This document shows positions 8,131 through 63,602 of a stretch of DNA of 64,000 nt, piece by piece (within the stretch, counting starts at the first letter, position 1; each line of letters opens with the position of its first letter). The notes beneath the pieces are model-generated. The model was not told the origin of the DNA. It was given only the letters and a program-made list of their open reading frames with translations, and did not search any database. The translations under genes and the position numbers were made by a program. This DNA is from Obrimoposthia wandeli. Its lineage: Eukaryota. The stretch covers positions 62,001-126,000 of the forward strand of contig CDROCS010002801.1 in assembly GCA_977020255.1 (NCBI GenBank). Reading direction: 5' to 3'.

Positions 8131-10764
8131 TAGTTCTTCATATAGATTCCTAATTAAGTTCTTCTTGTCTCGTCGTAGCGAAAGGTTGACTCACCACCGT
8201 TGAGTCTTGACTAAGTAAGTAAATATACTGCGACGGTGGTGGCGTTCGTCGCTGCACTGGTGATAAGTCTCCATACAACTCCTCCTCGATATCTTCGTAC
8301 AAGTCAATGTTGTTGGAAAATACCCTTTTTTTATGAGTAAAAATAATTAAAATAAGTTTTCTTAGATGTACTAACATAGTAAGAGGTTCTGTGTCTTTCA
8401 GAACAAGGCAAAGTAGGTGGGATTCTGTTTGGCGATATAGCGAGATGTTTAGAAGAGGTTTCAGAAGGGAGATTAACACGATTGATTAAATTCTAAAGAA
8501 AATTATACCAAATCAACTATAGTATATTTAATCTCAACAAATATATGCTTGTATCTTAAAACTATGATGAAATCTATATATTTTTCAGGGATTTTGTTAA
8601 AATTTCATTGATCTCAAAATTTTTTAAACTAACGTGAAATTATCCATAATGCACATATTTATCAATATTTCGATTACAGTAAGAAAATTAGTGTAGATTT
8701 TGGAATACTTTAGAGGCCTGACATTAAACATTATCAGAATATATAATCCATAATAAGGTTAGAAATTAGAGTATTATCGGTTTGGCTTAGAGGTTAGAGC
8801 ATTAGCGGTTTAGGTTAGAGTTAGAGCTGTTAGGGTAAATCTTGACTGTTCTCAGTAAGGACATAATTACATTTCTGAGACCACTGAAATATTAGTTATT
8901 ATGTGTAAGTTTTTTTTTCGTTATTACTATCAATATTTCACAATTGGTTTCGATTAAATGTATCCATCAGCTCAAAAATCATTTGTAAACTAAGATTTTA
9001 TAATATTTCATTTAAATTCTATTGATTTATGAGAAAAATTGTTAAATGTAGAACTTAAAGATTAATATTTAGTTAGTAAATCAGTCTAAATAGATTAAAT
9101 TGGGATATATTGCTGTTATTGAAGATGCGTTTTAGAAGAGAAATTATTATGAATTAGAGAAAAATGGCTAATTCTATCCTAATTGATTTATTGAGAAGAT
9201 GGGTTTATTTGATAAATGTTTGAAAGTTTGGGGAAAAAGGGAATATAGGCTTGTTTCTAGATTCTGCTATGCATAAGCTGGATTTATTCGATATATGTAA
9301 GAAAATTAAGGAAAAGGTTAGGATTAGTGGGTTAGCGTTTTAGGGAGGTTAGAAGTTAGGGTTAGGGTGTATCTTTCCAAAATATAACTTATTTCATAAT
9401 ATTGAACTCACATTGAATACTTTTTAAGACTGTAAAAAGATGTTGTAAATAGTTGCTTATAGGGTCTAAGTCATGTATGAGTCAAAACAAAAGTTTTTAG
9501 GGGAAACCTAAGCTTTATTGAATAGCTTCCAACAACTGGCGGTGGTGAAGGATTTGAATAAGAGTATTGGTGGAAATAATCAGTGATAGAGTAATCATAA
9601 AAACCAATATGAACCAAATATTTATTAATTTAAAGAAAAAGGAGTATTCGTAAGATCTTTAAATGGTTTTCTTTTAGTAGTAATACTATTAGGAGATGTG
9701 AGTGATTGCGTATTCGGATTCATGTTTCCCTATAATTATTTCGGTTTTGGTTCATATTAGCATATTAATGACTTCCTGAACCAATGTTGCTTATCTTGAT
9801 TATTATTCATATTTTCCAAATTAATGTATATCGATATTGTTAATTTATAACATATTAACGACTACAGATTTCAGATAAATATTGAAAAACCGGATATAAG
9901 GTGATTACGTATAAGAAGTGAAATTAGGATAAATGAGAGCTTATATATGTTCTAAAAGGGATAAGCTGAATCTATTCGATATATCTGTTGGAAAAATAGA
10001 GAAAATAAGACATGATTATAGATTCTGTTATGTATGAGAAGAGGAATTATGCTAAATTATATGAAAATAGCTATTTCTGTCATAAAGTGATTTATTGATA
10101 AGCTGGGTTTATATCTATATATATATATTTGGGTAAATTAGGAAACCAAGGAATATTATGGTGAATTATACGAAGTTTGACTGCTGTATAAGAAGGAAAA
10201 AATAAAATCTAGATTGAATTATATATTCTAAAATATTTCAGAAGAAAGGTTATAGGAAATTTTATAAGAGTGAGAAAAAAAATGTTAGTGGGAATGAATC
10301 AAATAGTTATAATAAACCGAGGCTTTCTATCCATACGATTACATAGAAATTTTGATATGTATTGAAATAACTTCCAACATAACCCTCACTTTCAGAAAAA
10401 GACACCGAAATATACTTCTTTATTGATCATGAATTTCTACATAACCCTAGATACATATTGAAACTTTAGTGAAATTATCTAAATTTTACTAATATCCTAA
10501 TCCTATTTTCAGCCCATATTTTCATTTTCAAACATCCATTTCATCAAACTGCCGTGTTCGAGGAATACTTGAATCATCGCCATGGCTAGGCATGATTTTT
10601 ATAATGTAGCATTTTATTGAGTATGAAGCAATGGATGGTAGAAGAATATAGATTTATGTATTACAGTCTATTGAAGAGATTTCAGAAGTAAAAATGAACC
10701 ATATTGGTTATTTTTTATTCTAAATAAACTTATACAAGACCGTCTATTTTATCCATATTTCGAT

Positions 10765-19700: not shown

Positions 19701-19730
19701 GACTGATTCATTGGTCGATTGATGTTGCAG

Positions 19731-20267
19731 CAAGAGCACAAGTCCATCTGCCACAAGATCCGCCAGTCCCGGCCTGGAGTCGCTCTTGGTATCATCGTGG
19801 TCATTGTCAGCATTGCTTGTGCTATTCTGGTCATTTTGCTTGACAATGAGTTCAACAGCAAAAGTGCAATCATGCTCCATAACTGTCAGGAGTTCATTTT
19901 CTACGCGCTTAGCCTCGTTGTTGCCATCATGCTGTTCCGGAAGACGCGTAAGCTAAAGTTCAGCTACACTTTTTTGCAAAACAATGTCGACAAGAACCTT
20001 CTGCAGCTGTCCTGCTTCTTCTCTCTCTACTTCTCTGTCCTGATCGCGGTGCTCTCGTTCCAGAACGGAACGGACACTGAGATCATCTTCCGCGGTTTCA
20101 CTGCCTTGCTGGAGCTTGTGCAGGTCATTGTACAGACGTACGTCATCCAGGACTGTTTCTTCCGATGCTGCGACAATCTCCTTTCTCAGGAACAGAAGCC
20201 TGGCCAGAACTATCTCGCTGTGCTGATTGGCTTAAATTTTGGGCTCTGGGTGCTCAAAAGCTTCCAG
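19731..20267 (+). CDS. OTOP: Otopetrin exon: QEHKSICHKIRQSRPGVALGII...KPGQNYLAVLIGLNFGLWVLKSFQ
   Basis: Acceptor gatgttgcag and donor gtcagt at 20268; 537 nt, several hydrophobic helices. Matches otopetrin KGLFxGI, QxxxQTxFI and KPGRExxTFLxxxNxxxW motifs. Confidence 0.93.
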
Positions 20268-21089
20268 GTCAGTCATATTTTGAAGCACAGTTAGAACTGC
20301 CAAGTCTTTCAATTTTTTTCCATTTTTACCCGAAGCTTTTTTAAGCAGTATTTGTCAACAATCTTGGATATAAATAAGTAATATTTGTTCAGTTAATTTT
20401 TTTTTTCTTTAACACACTTTGTAATTTATGTTTATTATATATTTATATATTTAGTTTATTTCTTATAAATAAAAGTAGTAAATAAAACATTATATTTAAA
20501 TACAAAACATACCAGCCGGTCGAGATATATCTGACCGGTTCTAACTCTGACAAAACATTGAAAGAATACAAACTCTTGTGAAATAGTATTGAATAATAGA
20601 TAAATATGAAGTGTTAAATAAAATAAATAAATTTTAGCTTTGTTTCAAGATCGACTTTTGGTCAACTTTCTCACAAACGTTACATGCTAGGTTCTACAAA
20701 ACAACCAGTTTTTCAGCAAGAAGGGATAGTTCCAACAATCAAACGCGTTCCAAACAGTTTAAATGCTATACCAAGACACAGTGTTGAAGAGGAATGTGTG
20801 AATCTGCATTCTGTAAAGGTTTTTTGTGTAAAAGTGCTTTGCTGTTGAACAGGAATTTCCCAAAGCCGATTCAGTCAAGACAGACACGGATCGTTTGAAA
20901 TGAACTGAAAAAAGTCGATATTAAAACAAACTTATCATTGCTCACAAATAATTGTAATAAATTGTATGAAAGGACTTTAAATTTGAGAAATTAATTCATA
21001 TATGATAGATTTTTATTTTGAGGTTTAAATTTAAATATTTAGAATTTTCGTCGGTTTTCTGATAATTTAAATACAGTTTCTTGGAATAC

Positions 21090-54690: not shown

Positions 54691-55496
54691 AATTACCCTT
54701 CAAGTGTCAAAACCTTCAAAAATGTATTTTTCTACTTTTCAAACTTATATATAATAGGCTTGGTCTGAGCTTGGTCAGGCCTTCGAAGGTTGACCTTCAA
54801 GGTTCTACAACCTTCAAAAATGCAATATGCATGTGTTTAAAACAATCACAATTGCATTTAATCTTATAAGTGATTCATGGATTTTTATGAACAAACTATC
54901 ACTAAAAGATGATCATCTAGAAAATTTTTATACAATTTGTAAAATTTTATGAACAGACTATTCAGAACAAAATATACTTTATATTTTTAGTTCGACAGTT
55001 CGAATAGTTATAAAGTCTTATTCAAAATATCACAACTAATATGCGATGACCTGCGATTACAACCATTATCAATAAATACATTTTTTATATCCTACTGAAT
55101 TTTTCAAGGTCATAAAGCACGAACGCGTTCAACTAATTTTGTTAGATTAGGAGAAATGAAATTAAATAAATAACATGGTTGAAATATTTAAGGTTTTAAA
55201 TTAAAAAAACATAATCATTTTGAAACCTTGAAGGTCACGAAGTGAGTATATATGTTAAGAAAAAATGCAAAAAAAGGCTGTAAAAGATTAGAGTAAAACA
55301 AAGAAAGAAACAAATTAGTGGTAATGCGACATCAGCCGAAGAATTGCAAAGTTAGCGATCGCATTGATTAGACCTATAATCAAGAAAATTTCACACAAGT
55401 AGGTGGATGTGTCCGGTCTAATCCACACCCCCCTCCCCCCCTTGTCCTTTAAAACCGTGCATGTGTGTGGAGTGAAATTTCGTGTAGGTGTGTAGA

Positions 55497-56004
55497 AAAT
55501 TTTTCTACCCCCCCCCATCCCAAACACTCAAAAAAAAAAAAAATTAACTCCATTTAACACCCTGTAAATTTAAAAATCTCATAATGCTCATAAAAAATAA
55601 AAATGCATGATTTCATTCAATTGTTTAACATTTTCTTTATGGATATCTTTGATGATATAATCAAACTTGATTTTATTAAATTTGATATGATTGGAAAAGT
55701 GGTATGTGATAGGATTTTTGAACAAATACATATCCCATTCACAGTCATGATAAGAATGTTTCTTCAATTTGATGGTATAATTGAAGATAAATAAATGTTG
55801 AATAAAATCATTAGACTGATTATGGCTTTTTTTTCTTTATTGGAATTGTGTTGACAATGGATTTGATTCTCTTCTCTGGTGTGTTGGTAAATTTCGTACT
55901 GTAAAATTTTGAAGTAAATTTTCTACCCCCCCCCCCCATCCCAAACACTCAAAAAAAATTAACTCCATTTAACACCCTGTAAATTTAAAAATCTCATAAT
56001 GCTC
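55497..56004. repeat. ~90-bp direct repeat pair (55497-55589, 55916-56004) with poly-C and poly-A tracts
   Basis: aaattt(t)tctac(c)n atcccaaacactc(a)n ttaactccatttaacaccctgtaaatttaaaaatctcataatgctc occurs twice, differing only in homopolymer length. Confidence 0.95.
55603..55794 (+). CDS. Small 63-aa ORF of unknown function between the direct repeats
   Basis: ATG in aaaATG context, intact frame, aataaa at and just after the stop. No recognisable homology. Confidence 0.35.
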   Translation: MHDFIQLFNIFFMDIFDDIIKLDFIKFDMIGKVVCDRIFEQIHIPFTVMIRMFLQFDGIIEDK

Positions 56005-56020
56005 CCAAAATTTTGATTAA

Positions 56021-57575
56021 GGTCCTGAGAGGCCAAAAAATTGGCCAAAGCGTGCCCTACGGGCCCGCGGTGGATCAACGAGTAATAAATACAGGCTCAC
56101 TCCCTCTACAACTCCGACTCTGATACCCAACAATACAGTGCCTGATCCATTCAGAAGGCCACAATCTCCGATACGTCCTGTTAGGAGAATAAAGGCGACG
56201 AATGAGGTTAGAAATCATTTATTTAAAATGTTTTTTAATTTTATTTTCAGAAACTGCAACTGGATTTGGCACCGTCAGTGACCACGATTGAGAGGCTAAT
56301 TGAACCGCAATACTTGGCGAGTCAATGTAGCCAGGATGATCCCAGGAGTGATCAGAGATACCTACCGACTCCGGCTAAAATTGAGGTATATTTAATTATT
56401 CACTTAGAAAGCTGAGTTGGTGGAGGAAATTTGGGAGGAGGCATCTCGGAGACTACCTGTCGATATGAAGCAAGCGGCAGTTAGGAAACCTCGACGTCAT
56501 CGAATCAAAACTAATACGGTCCATTGGAAGAAGGCCAAGTTGGTGAAACAGGCTAATCTGCCCGTCATCGAGGTAAATTATTTATATGTTTAAATTTTAT
56601 TAATGTTTTTTTGTTGCAGGAACCAATAACATTAACTGAGGAGACATGGGCCAAAATTTCTCCTTTTCCGCATAAGCGAACGAGGCAGTGTGCTGTACGG
56701 AAGACACGGCGTTTTAGAAAGGCGAAATCCTGTCTGCTCAATTCGAGTGAAAAAACGATTGAGCGGCAGGAAAAACTTCCGTATAAGATTATTGAGGTAA
56801 TTTTTTGTTATTTTAAATATTTTTTTATTTAAATAAATTTTATTTGAAATTTTATTTTTGTTTTCATTTGCAGGAACCTGTCCCGATAATTGAGGAGACT
56901 TGGGGAGAAGTTACTCCTTTCCCTAAGAAAAGGACAAAGCGAGCAGAGGTGAAGAAGACGAGGCGCGCGAGAAAAATGCGAACCTCAATTGGCCATTATT
57001 CTGAGGCGGTGATTGGCCAGCAGGAGATTCTACCTCCTCCAATGGACGACGGGCCTATCTTATATGAGAGGATCCCAGTCTCGCCGATCGAGATAAGTCC
57101 GCACTCGAGTCAACAACGCCTGCAGGAGACTGCTTCTCCTCGTCCAACAACCAGCCAAAACTTGAAGAGGGCCTGGGATGACGCTGGTTTGGACGAATTC
57201 CTGGCGGAACTGGATACACCGGCAATGCTTCCAGATTCGCGTGGGAAACAGGATGCCGTCTCACGCCAGCTTCAGCGTGAGAAGGAGGAGAAACAGAAGA
57301 AAGCTCCGCGGAAGAGGAAGGCTACTGCTTCTATGTCGGGGCCATCAACATCGGCTGCACCTCCTCCCAAAACGTTGCGGCAACTATTGCCAAAACCTGA
57401 GGGAAGGACAATTGCTGTACAGCAACCGGTGAAGCCGAAAAAGAAACCGGGTCGGCCAAAGAAGAAGGAACCAGTACCGCTTTCTCCTATCAAAATAAGT
57501 CGGAGGGAATATGACCCGGATGATCCCAATGAAGACTTCGTAAGGATTTTCAAAAATATAATTTATAAACATTAG
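56021..57575 (+). CDS. Intron-containing basic repeat protein of the element. Exons ~56021-56206, 56251-56385, 56408-56572, 56620-56796, 56874-57575; start codon not resolved
   Basis: Four phase-0 GT-AG introns (44, 22, 47, 77 nt), each after a GAG codon, give a continuous frame. The last three exons are mutually homologous (EE.W...VxKxRRxR...Q..LP). Confidence 0.7.
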
Positions 57576-57605: not shown

Positions 57606-57784
57606 TTTTAGAATTTAGTAATATTAAAATATACTACTTAAGTTTATTAAAATAACAAGGTTAAAAATAAATTTTAGAATTTAATATTAAAATATACTAC
57701 TTAAGTTTATTAAAATAACAAGGTTAAAAATAAATTTTAGAATTTAGTAATATTAAAATATCCTCCTTAAGTTTATTAAAATAA
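57606..57784. repeat. ~63-66-bp AT-rich tandem repeat x3 in an intergenic spacer
   Basis: ttttagaattta(gta)atattaaaatat..cttaagtttattaaaata starts at 57606, 57672 and 57735. Confidence 0.9.
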
Positions 57785-57981
57785 AGTTAACTTATTCGAA
57801 TGTGATTGGATTGTTAAGGAATAAATAAAACAATTTAGGATTAAATATAAATGCAATGATTAGTTATATATTTATTAAACTTCCATTTGATAAATATATT
57901 TTAATTGCTTGTGATTGGATTAAAAATATCTTTAATTTATATATATAGGTTCAAATTTATTAACATCTTCATAATTAAAAA

Positions 57982-58293
57982 ATGGAATTTATTAAAATGC
58001 AAAGTTTGGTGACGAAGATCGAGGCAAATATAAGAATAAATGAGAAGAAAGGGGACTTAAAAAAGAGGGTCCTCAACCAGAATTTGTATACTGCTGTCGC
58101 GACAGAGTGGAATCATCGGGTGGAGATACAGGATAGGAGGCTAGCAGAACGCCGTCGAATCGTGGAGTGGAATAAGAAGATCGAATTGGAAAAAAGAAGA
58201 GAAGAGACGGAGGATGTTCGGCGAGCAGCAAGAAAGCGAATCCTCCAGATTAAACCGGAAGAGGGTCCTTCCACAAAAAAATTAATTTTATAG
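57982..58293 (+). CDS. 103-aa charged, probably coiled-coil protein with a basic C-terminus; function unknown
   Basis: Intact ATG-to-stop ORF in aaaaATG context, rich in E/K/R, in a gene-dense part of the element. Confidence 0.65.
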   Translation: MEFIKMQSLVTKIEANIRINEKKGDLKKRVLNQNLYTAVATEWNHRVEIQDRRLAERRRIVEWNKKIELEKRREETEDVRRAARKRILQIKPEEGPSTKKLIL

Positions 58294-58418: not shown

Positions 58419-58907
58419 ATGCAGGAATATATCATAGATTTTGAGGCTTTCATTAACAAAAATGGGGATTATATTATAAAAGAATTATGTATTATGGATG
58501 TATGCGACGTTTTTCATCCTTTGCATTTCATATTTCATATAGATATCCCATTTAAAAGTTTAGATTATAAGAAAAAATTTACTAATTTATATCTAACTAA
58601 ATATTTCCATTTATTAAAATGGAAAGAAGGACATAAGGCTTTTTGTGAAATATGTATTTTCGATACTATTAAATCTAATTTTGAAATTGAAAATGGAATT
58701 TTTTATGTTTTAGATGACATGGATGGCAAAAAATATAAGACTTTAAAAAAATATTTTCCTAAATTGAGGTTGAATACTTTAAATATTTCACGTGATCATC
58801 TATTAAATATTCCACAAAATATTTGCTGTCCATATCGTAATCATGGTGACCATTGCGCATATAAAAAATGTTTAAGTCTTTCTTATTATTACTTGACATG
58901 TAGATAA
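58419..58907 (+). CDS. 162-aa Maverick-associated protein with an N-terminal IIDFEAF...IIKEL (DxE, DEDD-exonuclease-like) motif and a C-terminal CxxxxHxxHC cluster
   Basis: Intact ORF from ATG 58419. The pattern xDxEGF/AF..FIxKELA..H..W..G..C..H..CA is one I recognise from invertebrate Mavericks. Nuclease function is inference. Confidence 0.65.
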   Translation: MQEYIIDFEAFINKNGDYIIKELCIMDVCDVFHPLHFIFHIDIPFKSLDYKKKFTNLYLTKYFHLLKWKEGHKAFCEICIFDTIKSNFEIENGIFYVLDDMDGKKYKTLKKYFPKLRLNTLNISRDHLLNIPQNICCPYRNHGDHCAYKKCLSLSYYYLTCR

Positions 58908-59049
58908 ACAATTCTTCTAATTGGAGGAATTCATTATTAAAATTTTACAATTATTTACAAATAAGGCTTTTAATTGGAGGAATAAAATTATTTTTTCAAC
59001 CAATAACAGATAAACAATCCTTCTCAGTGGAGGAATAAATTCAATTTTT

Positions 59050-59136: not shown

Positions 59137-62100
59137 ATGCCTATGGTAAGAATTTATTTTTATTATTTCCTTATTAATATTTATTATTTCAGATTACGTG
59201 TAACCTATTCCCTGCGTATTGCGCTGCTTCGGCTCCGCATGGAGGAGAGTCCTGCATGGAGACAATGTCTGCATACTACCGGACAAAGTCTCAAGGTGTT
59301 CTGTTCTTCGTCTGCCCCTTCTGCAGAACAATGGAGGAGAAGGAGTTTCGAAAATTCTTCTGTGAACATCGAGCTCACCTATCGTGTTTCACGGCCAACA
59401 ACAAGAAGAGGGATATCGTCCAATTGGTGCGCGATTCGCAGGCCGCTCCAGCTCCACCTCCAATTAAAGTGGCAGTCAGTCTACCAGTTTATGGTCCTGC
59501 CATTGGTCCTTCTCTCCCGGCTCCTGATTCTGCTGCTGCCCCATCCACTCAAATGTCTAACAATGAGTGGATGAACGACATCTCCGAGGAAGATTTTGAG
59601 GATTTGGCACCAGCAACCCAATTCTCAAACAATGACTGGATGCGAAATATCACCCAGTCAGATTTCGAGATGGAGCAGCCTCAGTGGAGCGATAACTCAT
59701 GGTTGGAGACCATCGAGGAATCTGATTTCGTCGAGTCAACGGACGACAGCTGGATGGATTCCATCGATGAAGAGGACTTCATTCCAGCTCAACTTGGATT
59801 GTCATCATTAGGTTTTTTTTTTTTTTTTGTAAATTGTAATTATATATTTTATTTTTTAATATATATTTTTTATTTATATTATTTATTCAGGAAATACCGT
59901 TCTACAATCGTCATCTGCTACAACAGATATGCCTCCACCATCGCGAGTGCCTACATCGATGTTAGCGCGCCTTAGAGGTAATAATTTTTAAAAATATATT
60001 TATTTTTTAATATATATATTTCAGCAGCACTAACTTTTACAACAGCCGCTTCTTCATCGGAAAGGTCAGCGGTCCCTTCAACATCATCTACAGTTGCCTC
60101 AACATCGGCAGCATCAAAAATAGCAGCAGCTTCCACATCAGCTGCAATTGTCTCAACATCGGCAGCATGTCCAATAGCAGCACCTTCAACCTCAGCTGCG
60201 ATTGTCTCAACTATTAATATAAATAGTTGTCTTCCCGTTCAATTAGGGGGAGGTTTGTCAGCGACAAACGGAAGAAAGAGGCGAGGCCAATTTCTTAATA
60301 AGGTCCCACCCAAAAAACGTAGAGAAAACGGTGCTACTATAGAGTATCACCTAAATAATAAATATGTTATAGTTAAGGTGCCATTAGGAAATGAAATTTT
60401 ATTAAACGTAGGTGTAGATTCAAATATTGAAAATCTTTTAAAATCAGAAGTGACTAAATTAGGACAGGCTAAGGTTCAATTTTGCGCAACAGTGTAGTTT
60501 AAAAATGTCAATGAGGAAACTAAAACTTGGGTAATTTCACATAAAGCAACTGTTTTTTATGATAATTTTGTAACTGAAATTGGAAGAAACCTGGATGAAA
60601 AAATTGCTAATTATAGCGAGGTAAGTAGTGGATGGACTCTAGTTAGAATTCACAATGTTAGCTTTGTTCTACATGATATATCTTTCGGAGGGTTCATACA
60701 TTCCTTCACCTAGATCTCTTCAACTTTCACGTTCCATTGTTAACGTACAAAACAGTGATAACCTTTGCTTTCTGTATAGCGTGTTGGCCATCCTCAAAAG
60801 GGATGTAATTACTGAGCATAGAGAGCGTGTCAGTAAATATACCCCTTTTTTAAATGAATTGCAGTATCATGGAATAGATTTTCCTGTTAAATTAACTGCG
60901 ATATCAAGATTTGAACATCTTAATAACTTGAGTATTAATGTATTCAAATATAATACTGATATCCCAGTTAATGTAACAGACGAAGAAATATTTAAAAATC
61001 CTTTTGTAGAAGCAAAAATGAGGGGACTCAGGTCAACTTAATTTTGCTCGAACATAATAATAAATTCCATTATGCTGCAATTCCCAGTTTAGATCGTCTT
61101 CTAAATTTAGATAATGGAGCCTTACCGGTTAGGATAAGGTGTAAGTGGTGTCATAGATGTTTGCATGGGTTCCGATCCGAGCTCTCTTACAGCAAACATC
61201 TGACATTATGTTCACTGAATCCTGATGACAATACGCTATATAGCATGCCTAAGGATAATGATTTAAAATTCAGGGATTGGGCAAAATGCATACCCGTGGA
61301 ATTCAGGGTGTATGCAGATTTTGAGTCAATTTTAGCATTGCACGACCAGTATGAGAGTATTCACCTACCGGCTTCGGCAGGACTACTATTCTTAGGCCCC
61401 AATATTACCCAGTATCATAAATTTTCCGATCCAAATTGTATTTTAGATTTTATATTAAAATTAGAGGAATTAGGAACAACAATTTTCAAACCGTGGTATG
61501 ATCTCAATGCTCATCAAGCAATGATCATGACAGGCATAGACTGGGTTAATTTTAATTCTTGTAGATTATGTTATTTGTGTGGAACCCAGTCTAAGTTAGT
61601 CAGAGATCACGATCATGTTACGGGGCGATACTTGGGAGTAGCGTGCAACCTTTGTAACCTTGGCCGTCGTCTCCCTAAAAAACCACGCATTCCCATCGTG
61701 TTTCATAACCTCAAAGGATATGATTTGCATCATATACTTAAATACGCGTTGGGTACATTAAGCTCTTGGGAAATTTCATGTATACCTCAAACTTCAGAGA
61801 AATATTTATCTTTAACTGCATATACTGAATTCTGCAGTTTAAGATTCATAGATTCTCTGCAGTTTTTGAGCGGGTCTTTAAAAAATTTAACGGCATCTTT
61901 AAATGCATGGCCAATTACACAGTCAGTGTTCCCAGCTTCGGTTAACGATAAGGGGATTTTTCTGTATAAATTTGCGAAACCTTTCGCAGATTTAGAAAAT
62001 ACAACTGAAATCCCACCCATAACTGAATTTGAAAGTGTAAGTCTTCAAGACTATAATGAGGCCCGTACATTTTGGGTGAATAATTGTCAAAATCTTTTCG

Positions 62101-63602
62101 AATATATGCTTTATTATATGAAGTTAGACATTTATCTTTTAGCTGATGTTTTTGAGTCCTTTCGTGTAAAGTCTTTAGCAGAAGATGGGCTAGATCCCAT
62201 GCATTTCTTTAGTTTACCTGGTCTTTCATGGGCAACAGCAATAAAAACTCTTAAAATTAATATCGAGTTACTGCAAGATCCCGCGATGTATCAAATGTAT
62301 GATTATGGTATACGCAGTGGAATGACTTTTGTCAACAAACATCATGTTGTCAAAAATCAATCCACGGAGATTCTGTACATCGATATTAATAATTTGTATG
62401 GGTGGGCGCTTACTCAACCTCTACCTCATGCCAACTTTAAGTGGGTTTATGATGTGGATCAGTTGAATAAGTTGATGACAGATTTGGCTACTGTTGATAC
62501 AGTTTCATCCGACGTCGGCTATTTGGTTGAGGTGGACATAAAAATCCCTCCCAATGTGCATGATAAATTAGATGATCTTCCAGTAGCGCCTGTTCATCAA
62601 TGCCCACCTAATTCAAAGGTTAAGAAATTATTGTTAACCCATGAAGACAAGTTGAATTATGTTGTGCATTGGCGGCTTCTTCAATTCTACTTAAAGTTGG
62701 GAGCGAAAGTTACTCGAATTCATCGTGCTATAAGCTTCAGTCAAAACTTTGTGTTTAAAGACTATATTGAGAAGAATTCAAGAAAACGTAATTTGGCCAC
62801 TAGCAAATTCGATCGAGATTTTTACAAGTTAAAAAGTAATAGTCTCTTTGGAAAAACTGTAGAGGACTTGCGGAAACGTATTTGTCTACGGTTTTGCAAT
62901 GATGAGCGTAAACTAATAACATATATTAGCAAGTACAACTTCAAGCGTAGTTTTACAATTGCAGATGACTTGGTAGCAGTGTTATTAGGAAAACAGAGTA
63001 TTTGTCTCGATCGACCGAGTTATATAGGTCAAACGGTTTTAGACATTTCTAAAATCAGAATGTATGAGCTTCAATACATAGAATTGGAGAAATATCGACG
63101 AGAATTCAATTGTGAAATCAAAATCGCAGCTGGGGACACTGACTCTTTCTTTTTAGAATGTAGGAATGTTAGTTTAAATAATCAATTATTACCAGCAATG
63201 TTTAGGGACAACTTACTAGATACCCATAAATATCCCGCTAACCATCCTCTACACTCTATGAGTTTAAAGGACATTATCGGGAAATTTAAGGATGAAAGCG
63301 AGGGACAGGTTTCGTATGATGATTGTATTTTCCTACGCCCTAAATGCTACAGTTTACATGCATCTAATAATACATGTTCAATGAGAGCAAAGGGTGTGGG
63401 AAGAAACAATCTTACACATGAGGCCTACCGGAAAGTTTATGATACTGGGTGTATTGAAAGCGTTGAGCAAACTAGATTTATTTCAAGATCCCATCAACTG
63501 TATTCCCATAAATCAACCAAAATCGCGTTGAGTAGTAATGACGACAAGCGCTTTTGGGTAGAAAAGAACGCTAGCCTGGCTTATGGACACTTCAGAATTT
63601 AA
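59137..63602 (+). pseudogene. Full spliced pPolB gene model (exons 59137-59145, 59193-59811, 59891-59977, 60025-63602) with one in-frame TAG (60495) and two mutually compensating frameshifts (~60680, ~61020)
   Basis: GT-AG introns of 47, 79 and 47 nt give a continuous frame into QLGGG and the Polinton pre-polymerase motifs SSGWTL..I, GSYIP, IVNVQNSDNLCFLYSVLA, GIDFPV, ISRFE.LNNLSINVF, VNLILL..HY. Confidence 0.7.
61044..63602 (+). CDS. polB: Protein-primed family B DNA polymerase core (Polinton/adintovirus type), 852 aa intact
   Basis: ExoI VYADFES, inserted Zn/EndoVII-like CYLC..RDHDHVTG..C..CN, ExoII FHNLKGYD, ExoIII YMKLDI, motif A YIDINNLYG, motif B KLKSNSLFGKT, motif C GDTDS, then GKFKDE, LRPKCY, KGV, DDKR. 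Confidence 0.97.
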   Translation: MLEHNNKFHYAAIPSLDRLLNLDNGALPVRIRCKWCHRCLHGFRSELSYSKHLTLCSLNPDDNTLYSMPKDNDLKFRDWAKCIPVEFRVYADFESILALHDQYESIHLPASAGLLFLGPNITQYHKFSDPNCILDFILKLEELGTTIFKPWYDLNAHQAMIMTGIDWVNFNSCRLCYLCGTQSKLVRDHDHVTGRYLGVACNLCNLGRRLPKKPRIPIVFHNLKGYDLHHILKYALGTLSSWEISCIPQTSEKYLSLTAYTEFCSLRFIDSLQFLSGSLKNLTASLNAWPITQSVFPASVNDKGIFLYKFAKPFADLENTTEIPPITEFESVSLQDYNEARTFWVNNCQNLFEYMLYYMKLDIYLLADVFESFRVKSLAEDGLDPMHFFSLPGLSWATAIKTLKINIELLQDPAMYQMYDYGIRSGMTFVNKHHVVKNQSTEILYIDINNLYGWALTQPLPHANFKWVYDVDQLNKLMTDLATVDTVSSDVGYLVEVDIKIPPNVHDKLDDLPVAPVHQCPPNSKVKKLLLTHEDKLNYVVHWRLLQFYLKLGAKVTRIHRAISFSQNFVFKDYIEKNSRKRNLATSKFDRDFYKLKSNSLFGKTVEDLRKRICLRFCNDERKLITYISKYNFKRSFTIADDLVAVLLGKQSICLDRPSYIGQTVLDISKIRMYELQYIELEKYRREFNCEIKIAAGDTDSFFLECRNVSLNNQLLPAMFRDNLLDTHKYPANHPLHSMSLKDIIGKFKDESEGQVSYDDCIFLRPKCYSLHASNNTCSMRAKGVGRNNLTHEAYRKVYDTGCIESVEQTRFISRSHQLYSHKSTKIALSSNDDKRFWVEKNASLAYGHFRI

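Follow-up and report, generated by a model that had tools for sequence, protein, structure and literature searches.

The Mavericks (Polintons) of animals, named Eupolintoviridae and formerly adintoviruses, are elements of 15–20 kb with terminal inverted repeats (TIRs), a 6-bp target-site duplication (TSD), a pPolB polymerase of family PF03175, an rve integrase, a packaging ATPase, and a small protein X-like open reading frame (ORF) (PMC8097293; PMC8502044), and all of these features are shared by the element described here. Related MELD viruses are listed as having TBP-like genes (PMC8097293; PMC8502044), and the adintovirus ‘Oncoid’ regulators usually lie upstream of PolB (PMC8502044). Intact vertebrate Mavericks have been described as intronless, with the words ‘No introns were observed’ (PMC8097293). 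In nematodes, Mavericks carry intron-bearing cargo genes such as wasp proteases and krma kinases, which are members of large host gene families and encode folded enzyme domains (bioRxiv 10.1101/2022.07.12.499685). The introners of dinoflagellate polintoviruses are a different matter (PMC12166617), and group I introns have also been reported (PMC12220804); nothing pertinent was seen in PMC10748475. The element under study lies in a 64,000-nt stretch of Obrimoposthia wandeli DNA (GCA_977020255.1, contig CDROCS010002801.1, positions 62,001 to 126,000; hereafter the window), and its leftmost accessory gene, here termed the repeat gene, contains homologous exons, or modules, bounded by phase-0 introns. 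The original prediction, made from the window sequence, had placed this gene in a virus-like element, and this was borne out: the carrier is a high-copy Maverick/Polinton of ~16 kb with TIRs, a 6-bp TSD, pPolB, integrase, ATPase, and TBP.

Unlike the vertebrate Mavericks (PMC8097293), this element has four introns in its leftmost gene and three in the 5' part of pPolB, and the repeat gene matches no accessory gene described for animal Mavericks in the available text of PMC8097293 and PMC8502044. Like the nematode cargo, the gene is intron-bearing, high in GC, and situated beside the left repeat (bioRxiv 10.1101/2022.07.12.499685); unlike that cargo, it has no detected host family, low complexity, and an exon number that differs from one element lineage to another. 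With the Oncoids it shares a position upstream of PolB, an acidic and motif-based product without a sequence family, and probably a role as an early regulator with host proteins as its targets (PMC8502044). The repeat gene may work like an Oncoid but is no member of that group: unlike Oncoids and E1A, it is without LxCxE, CR1, and paired CxxC (no CxxC was seen in the translations examined), and it has words resembling SUMO-interacting motifs (SIM-like words), FxxxWxxL, and basic repeats. Adenovirus E1A is itself a spliced gene at the left end of its genome. In cellular genes, symmetric phase 0-0 exons duplicate in tandem and are gained or lost in frame; unlike those cases, the duplications described here occurred inside a virus-like mobile element, and intermediates with one to four modules survive as fossils in one genome. 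No published exon accordion or exon duplication in Polintons was found in the open literature (subscription papers, Repbase, and supplements lay outside this scope).

Exon homology and selection on the spliced frame

The gene lies on the plus strand of the window and contains three modules. Module E3 (56408..56572; 165 nt, 55 codons) ends after splicing in LPVIE|E, module E4 (56620..56796; 177 nt, 59 codons) follows, and module E5a (56874-57035) opens the last exon (56874..57575), which continues into a Pro/Ser-rich and basic tail with KKPGRPKKK at 57441-57467 and a stop codon at 57573-57575. The original prediction had given the boundaries and translations of the first two exons and of the start of the third, which were reproduced as quoted, as was the basic KKPGRPKKK word, and its proposal that the three phase-0-bounded exons are homologous was confirmed by shuffle-tested scores and by GT..AG introns in phase 0. 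Local protein scores of 143 for E4/E5a (DNA identity 99/157) and 66 for E3/E5a were each equalled by 0/2000 shuffles, and the score of 55 for E3/E4 by 1/2000, with the scores of the remaining 25 segment pairs each reached by at least 69/2000. Exon 2 (56251..56385, 45 codons) was considered as a fourth repeat and rejected, as it had no score above shuffles and is not detectably homologous to the modules. Similarly, a motif resembling an LC3-interacting region (WxxL/WxxxTP), at first taken as common to exon 1 and the repeats, was dropped because it is not conserved across module types.

Copies of the gene (n = 78) were aligned in three subfamilies, namely A (35 copies, the window's own), B (20 copies, ~86% alike), and C (23 copies, ~76–86% alike); subfamily C was drawn from 25 fetched loci after excluding L087, where the query itself lies, and L096, which another element has truncated. 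The commonest junction words are GT..AG in all three subfamilies. In A, B, and C, respectively, exon lengths are all multiples of three, with 135/135/135 nt for exon 2 (found in 33/35, 20/20, and 23/23 copies), 165/165/147 nt for E3, and 177/177/0 nt for E4, while modal intron lengths vary, with 44/46/44, 44/44/38, and 47/46/~42 nt for the first three introns and 77/76 nt (A and B) for the fourth. GC content is 44–51% in exons and 10–18% in introns. Selection was measured as the ratio of nonsynonymous to synonymous differences (pN/pS) between subfamilies, net of within-subfamily differences, from uncorrected distances over at most 120 random pairs per comparison with a codon bootstrap. From the 3' end of exon 1 to exon 5, the spliced frame gave ratios of 0.27 (0.17–0.39), 0.42 (0.29–0.57), and 0.40 (0.26–0.61), and the same exons read in two shifted frames gave 1.09–1.59; exon 1 gave 0.19–0.32 (1.21–2.21 in shifted frames), the repeats combined 0.30–0.38, and the E3-type module 0.14–0.36. 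Purifying selection acts on the spliced frame only. Intron interiors have diverged by 0.06–0.11, no more than synonymous sites (0.12–0.18). Because selection follows the spliced frame, and because exon lengths stay in threes while intron lengths shift, splicing of the introns by the host is strongly implied. Reads from four sequencing runs (one sample, one study, kind not recorded) cover the introns like the exons and look like DNA; among the 15 read joints listed (141 more are unlisted) none matches a predicted intron, and two joints that skip ~260 bases, from intron 3 to the acceptor of intron 4, fit the two-module form as DNA. No processed intron-free copy was present among 16 fetched loci (12 chosen for long open frames), all of which keep their introns; the long open frames at these loci are due to introns whose length preserves the frame.

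The copy in the window is a pseudogene with a 5' deletion. The gene had been taken to begin at 56021, which proved incorrect: the coding remnant begins at 56096, where TIR sequence is joined straight to the surviving 3' end of exon 1 (56096..56206), and upstream of the corresponding position 19/19 sibling loci run on as further coding sequence. As a result, the window copy is ~1.43 kb shorter than a copy retaining the 5' region and is without promoter, start codon, and ~200 codons of exon 1, which in other copies has a full length of 681–738 nt and is strongly acidic (median 17 Lys + Arg and 47 Asp + Glu). This exon, out of sight in the original prediction, alters how the protein is to be interpreted. 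Its four introns, all GT..AG and in phase 0, lie at 56207..56250 (44 nt, 14% GC), 56386..56407 (22 nt), 56573..56619 (47 nt), and 56797..56873 (77 nt); the second is 44 nt in 34/35 sibling copies and 38 nt in subfamily C. The earlier remark that every intron follows a GAG codon is true of the window copy (4/4) but not of subfamily C, where AAG precedes intron 2 in at least 21/23 copies, and GAG as a special signal was rejected, because donor sites ordinarily have this context and it is not found at every intron. A donor-like GT at 57540 in the last exon is a possible alternative splice site, and a stop lies 11 codons past 57539 in 35/35 A, 18/20 B, and 21/23 C copies.

Probable gain and loss of modules

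In subfamily C, E4 and its intron are cleanly missing, in frame, in 23/23 aligned copies, a count that, with the subfamily fetched using an E4-less query, marks a multi-copy subfamily and not a share of the genome. A further 40/40 matches have 96–100% identity over ~1485 bases, and one of five C regions examined keeps nearly the whole gene set, with pPolB, protease, capsid, integrase, ATPase, and both element ends. Because E4 and E5a differ at silent sites almost to saturation (pS 0.74), but E5a of A and C by only 0.23, it is subfamily C that lost E4. Older lineages were reached starting from a decayed exon 1 fragment of the same gene at 8140-8400 of the window (minus strand). Among 23 hand-picked old loci, four modules were found in L204, L206, and L208; three-module loci retain one or the other middle module, two-module copies exist too, L196 and L197 have a single module, and L211 has one chimeric module. 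Another element gene or a terminal repeat lies within 1.5 kb in 22/22 old loci checked. A DNA tree of the modules (62 rows, including 19/23 of the hand-picked old loci and leaving out modules <100 nt) divides into an E3-type and an E4/E5-type clade (support 100/99), each of which divides again; the most diverged lineage carries one module of each type, and four-module copies have the order A, A', B', B.

The original prediction that the gene grew by intron-mediated exon duplication is supported by the tree, by the exon lengths, and by the copies with one to four modules, and judged from these sequences a history of exon duplication is very probable. The tree is consistent with an ancestor of two modules in which single exons were duplicated in tandem, with losses later. 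An ancestor with one module of type A and one of type B would have duplicated each once in tandem, giving A, A', B', B, and later losses would have arisen by recombination between look-alike intron/exon junctions. Because phase-0 ends preserve the frame at every gain or loss, many variants would have remained mobile and spread.

Apart from the query-bound count for subfamily C, several observations weigh against this history. In A and B, E4 clusters with E5a (98/93) and apart from the older middle module, a sign of recombination or independent duplication that blurs the history, and the tree was rooted at its midpoint. The old copies are decayed, with an internal module length that is a multiple of three in only 13/25. 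In addition, E4 alone has a net pN/pS of 0.73 (0.30–2.82), which is not clearly below 1, and this module can be lost.

Proposed function and its alternatives

Exon 1 was in view in 47 copies, of which four, all from the two-module subfamily C, have every exon open. These encode 545–553 aa with an isoelectric point (pI) of 5.3–6.5, 6.9–7.3% Arg, and ~10.5% Pro, and the three-module type, taken as a sum of exon medians, has ~631 aa with 97 Lys + Arg and 100 Asp + Glu, so that the whole protein (~545–630 aa) is neutral to acidic. The description of the product as rich in Arg and Lys therefore applies to the repeat modules (12–15 Lys + Arg vs 7 Asp + Glu) but not to the protein as a whole. In exon 1, two YIDL(T/L/D)SQDS words occur in 23/32 in-frame copies and one in the other nine, an FxxxWxxL word, which we take to resemble the p53 activation helix, occurs in 31/32, and older copies of the exon have up to three SIM-like words. 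In the last exon, KKPGRPKKK is exact in 26/35 A copies; its interpretation as an AT-hook did not hold, since the core is PGRP and not RGRP and Pfam gave no AT-hook match. In an undeleted copy, ATTGG and TATA words stand 100 and 64 bases ahead of the ATG, and ATTGG/TATA-like words likewise precede the neighbour ORF and pPolB. A structure prediction of the repeat region from 11 similar sequences gave a predicted local distance difference test (pLDDT) of 61 and a predicted template modelling score (pTM) of 0.23.

The original prediction had recognised no family for the gene, and this stands, as no homolog was found in any library searched. Alignments of the repeats against longer proteins and of exon 1 each matched 0/7999 candidates, and 0/76 pattern matches in viral contigs held up. 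A search of 1.84 billion representatives gave one match (E=2e-4), an unrelated tandem-repeat protein aligned on 17 positions, and a PDB search returned only ribosomal eL29 (E=0.35). For the gene's exons, PHROGs and NCBIfam gave nothing, and Pfam nothing save a sub-threshold PF09720 on E3. In the ESM Atlas, both halves scored 0.76, and the first match was an ‘AT hook domain-containing’ cluster, which is a lead only.

The explanation that we favour, by a slight balance of probability, is that of a spliced accessory gene with a module accordion whose product is a disordered nuclear regulator; the function as a disordered, motif-rich nuclear regulator, taken by itself, has about an even chance. 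Because ATTGG and TATA words precede the ATG, host polymerase would transcribe the gene as an independent unit, from a CCAAT-like and TATA-like promoter beside the left repeat. The protein would be an early adaptor with an acidic front that binds host factors and a rear that binds chromatin or DNA: the SIM-like words of exon 1 would bind SUMO, the acidic-aromatic words would behave like an activation domain, and the basic modules, for which DNA or chromatin binding is a plausible prediction, would together with the GRP word hold the protein on DNA or chromatin. The outcome would be an element that stays transcribed or is shielded from silencing.

A number of points count against this function. 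It rests on short motifs in a gene without any homolog, and these motifs were picked after the sequence was seen. In 5000 shuffles, PGRPK occurred in 16–25, FxxxWxxL in 59–71, [ILVM]DLT in 165–188, and LxxIxE in 795–914, so that single motifs arise in 0.3–18%. The canonical AT-hook core is RGRP flanked by basic residues, from which PGRP departs. The published SUMO-binding motif is [PILVM][ILVM]DLT, of which YIDLT misses the first position (PMC4086084), and an [ILVM]DLT word is missing in two of the four open copies. LxCxE and CR1 motifs are absent from all four of these copies, and with 11 sequences in the structure model its low confidence is no proof of disorder. In 4/4 loci of a second Maverick family of this genome, no counterpart of the repeat gene could be detected, and the gene is therefore not required by all Mavericks here.

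A more far-reaching reading would make the gene a spliceosome-dependent accordion by which a Maverick lineage has long tuned an early regulatory protein, each exon gained or lost adding or removing one basic module and one junction-made LxxIxE-type docking word. The protein would be a new class of Maverick effector in which exon number controls how much host phosphatase and SUMO are bound; we regard this as unlikely. Gene accordions are used by poxviruses. A simpler phosphatase adaptor, in which splicing makes an LxxIxE word, with a basic patch upstream of it, at the end of each E3-type module and the number of modules sets PP2A-B56 recruitment, is distinctly unlikely. The junction LPVIE|E is found in 33/33 A and 14/19 B copies and LPIIE|E in 22/23 C copies, two LP[VI]IE words occur in 2/3 four-module loci, and RKKAK stands six residues upstream, inside the ~15 residues given for B56 basic patches (PMC7108865). 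A basic patch and LxxIxE together arise in just 32–39/5000 shuffles, but LxxIxE by itself arises in 16–18%, both Glu codons coincide with preferred splice-site letters (GAG|GT, AG|GAA), the E4-type end has Tyr in place of Leu, and E5a is without such a word.

Capture of a host gene as cargo, with a host function or no role in the element cycle, is about as improbable as the phosphatase adaptor. Nematode Mavericks offer a precedent, since genes that are high in GC and contain introns are described there in the interval from the left repeat to the core genes (bioRxiv 10.1101/2022.07.12.499685). GC at third codon positions (GC3) is 0.42–0.53 in the exons of the repeat gene and 0.12–0.34 in the element core genes, and the second Maverick family lacks the gene. 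The 5' exon of pPolB, however, shares the GC content (0.49, GC3 0.52) and the intron style, no relative was found among the 1.84 billion representatives (apart from the weak unrelated match above) or in two word-based searches, and all 22 old loci adjoin element genes or repeats. A host source might still hide beneath thousands of element copies, the genome searches having scored the best 40–150 matches.

About as improbable is a virion core protein that condenses the genome, in which the basic modules would pack the ~16-kb element like adenovirus pVII or pV. The modules are basic and the tail carries KKPGRPKKK, and tandem basic repeats are common among nucleic-acid-packing proteins; with pVII, pV, and pX, the repeat protein shares Arg/Lys-rich stretches, and it has about three times the length of pVII. 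A pI of 5.3–6.5 and ~7% Arg set the whole protein apart from pVII, in which Arg makes up 23% of the residues and a protease site is present (PMC7998265), and no LxCxE, CR1, RGRP, or (M/I/L)xGG word occurs in the four open copies. The gene also lies outside the virion module, on the polymerase strand, and the core-like protein of the original prediction is left unsupported. The virion module has two basic ORFs of its own, of 88 and 89 aa with pI 10.7–10.9, located at L021:5968-6234 (minus strand, pI 10.9) and L021:3477-3740 (minus strand, pI 10.7), which are better core-protein candidates and are not matched by the repeat profile (probability 0.4% and 0.0%). The first of these has a weak Adeno_PX (adenovirus protein X) Pfam match (E=0.011) and an xNGG|F word. 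No exon of the repeat gene gave a core-protein match in Pfam.

It is very improbable that the introns are unspliced and that the pattern stems from alternating composition or from a tandem duplication of DNA that has since decayed: no transcript was observed and the 22-nt intron 2 of the window copy is too short for a normal intron, but the window frame stops at codon 61 if the introns are retained, selection tracks the spliced frame across introns of lengths not multiples of three, and gains and losses follow exon-intron units.

The surrounding element and its meaning

The element begins after the TSD word CACACA (55392..55397, no strand) with the left TIR region (55398..56095, plus strand). 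This region opens with AGTAGG, a variant form of the (AGT)2 known from vertebrate Mavericks, and a part of it occurs twice (55498-55595 and 55916-56010), with ~320 bases of different sequence in between. The right end of the element falls outside the window, near window-equivalent 71779 (locus L021); the two ends are 85% alike across ~100 nt, and CACACA recurs past the right one. A DNA search gave 3659 candidates, and 40/40 scored matches had 92–100% identity. Pfam matches identify pPolB (PF03175, E=1.5e-25, plus PF02945), the rve integrase (PF00665, E=6.1e-13), and the A32-type ATPase (PF04665, E=2.4e-6); the protease has only a weak match (PF00770, E=0.029). The capsid ORFs had no informative match in Pfam or NCBIfam, and they are presumed to be such from position and from their likeness to known sequences. 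From the left, the repeat gene is followed by a 103-aa ORF, a 162-aa ORF, and pPolB, and on the opposite strand after pPolB come the protease, capsid ORFs, integrase, protein X-like ORF, ATPase, and TBP-like ORF. The TBP-like protein is encoded just past the window (L021:7461-7856, minus strand; PF00352, E=1.9e-10), and the second Maverick family has a TBP-like gene too. At the right end of the element (L021:8207-9087, plus strand) lie two similar ORFs, 27% alike in one copy. The host genome is of animal type and 1.35 Gb, and the window contains an exon of a host otopetrin at 19707-20294 (plus strand; PF03189, E=4.9e-22).

Beyond the stop codon of the repeat gene, three tandem AT-rich repeats of 63–66 nt occupy 57619-57810. 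The charged 103-aa neighbour ORF (57982..58293, plus strand) has a net pN/pS of 0.07–0.32, which reflects stronger purifying selection than on the repeat gene, and 0/7 candidates proved homologous to it. Given an in-frame stop just ahead and separate ATTGG and TATA-like words, this ORF is probably a separate gene and not a sixth exon, although 11/20 B copies are without both of its ATGs. The intronless 162-aa ORF (58419-58907, plus strand; 24% GC) has ~44% identity with the second Maverick family and no match in Pfam, PHROGs, or NCBIfam; its start resembles, in our assumption, a DEDD/RNase H-type nuclease. Before the pPolB start, at 58906-59036, stand three 53-nt spaced words containing TGGAGGAAT.

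The pPolB gene (59137..63602, plus strand) is broken in the window copy. Its 5' introns, all GT..AG, lie at 59146-59192, 59812-59890, and 59978-60024 in phases 0, 1, and 1; once they are removed, 392 codons read without a stop, and most of the A and C copies in which this region survives preserve the junction words. In the N-terminal exon (59193-59811, plus strand), a Cys/His cluster precedes four acidic W-x-x-x-I-x-E/Q-x-D-F repeats. In the second Maverick family, the matching region is a single uninterrupted ORF of 499 aa, with three SIM-like repeats resembling VTIISDD in the corresponding position. This second family (L149-L151, G000:C184) also has an ORF that presumably resembles a dual-specificity phosphatase, and two RING-like ORFs, one with a terminal VDLT word, are found immediately beyond it.

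Mavericks are usually treated as intronless, and an annotation blind to introns would miss a gene of this kind or label it junk. The surprise is limited by the conjectural function and by the intron-bearing Mavericks noted before. A virus-like element here employs host-style introns as a means of modular design, and its fossil copies, thousands of them within a single genome, form an unusually complete natural record of how exons were duplicated and lost under selection. If the proposed function is true, the regulator would be a candidate for how Mavericks activate genes or evade silencing in animal nuclei.

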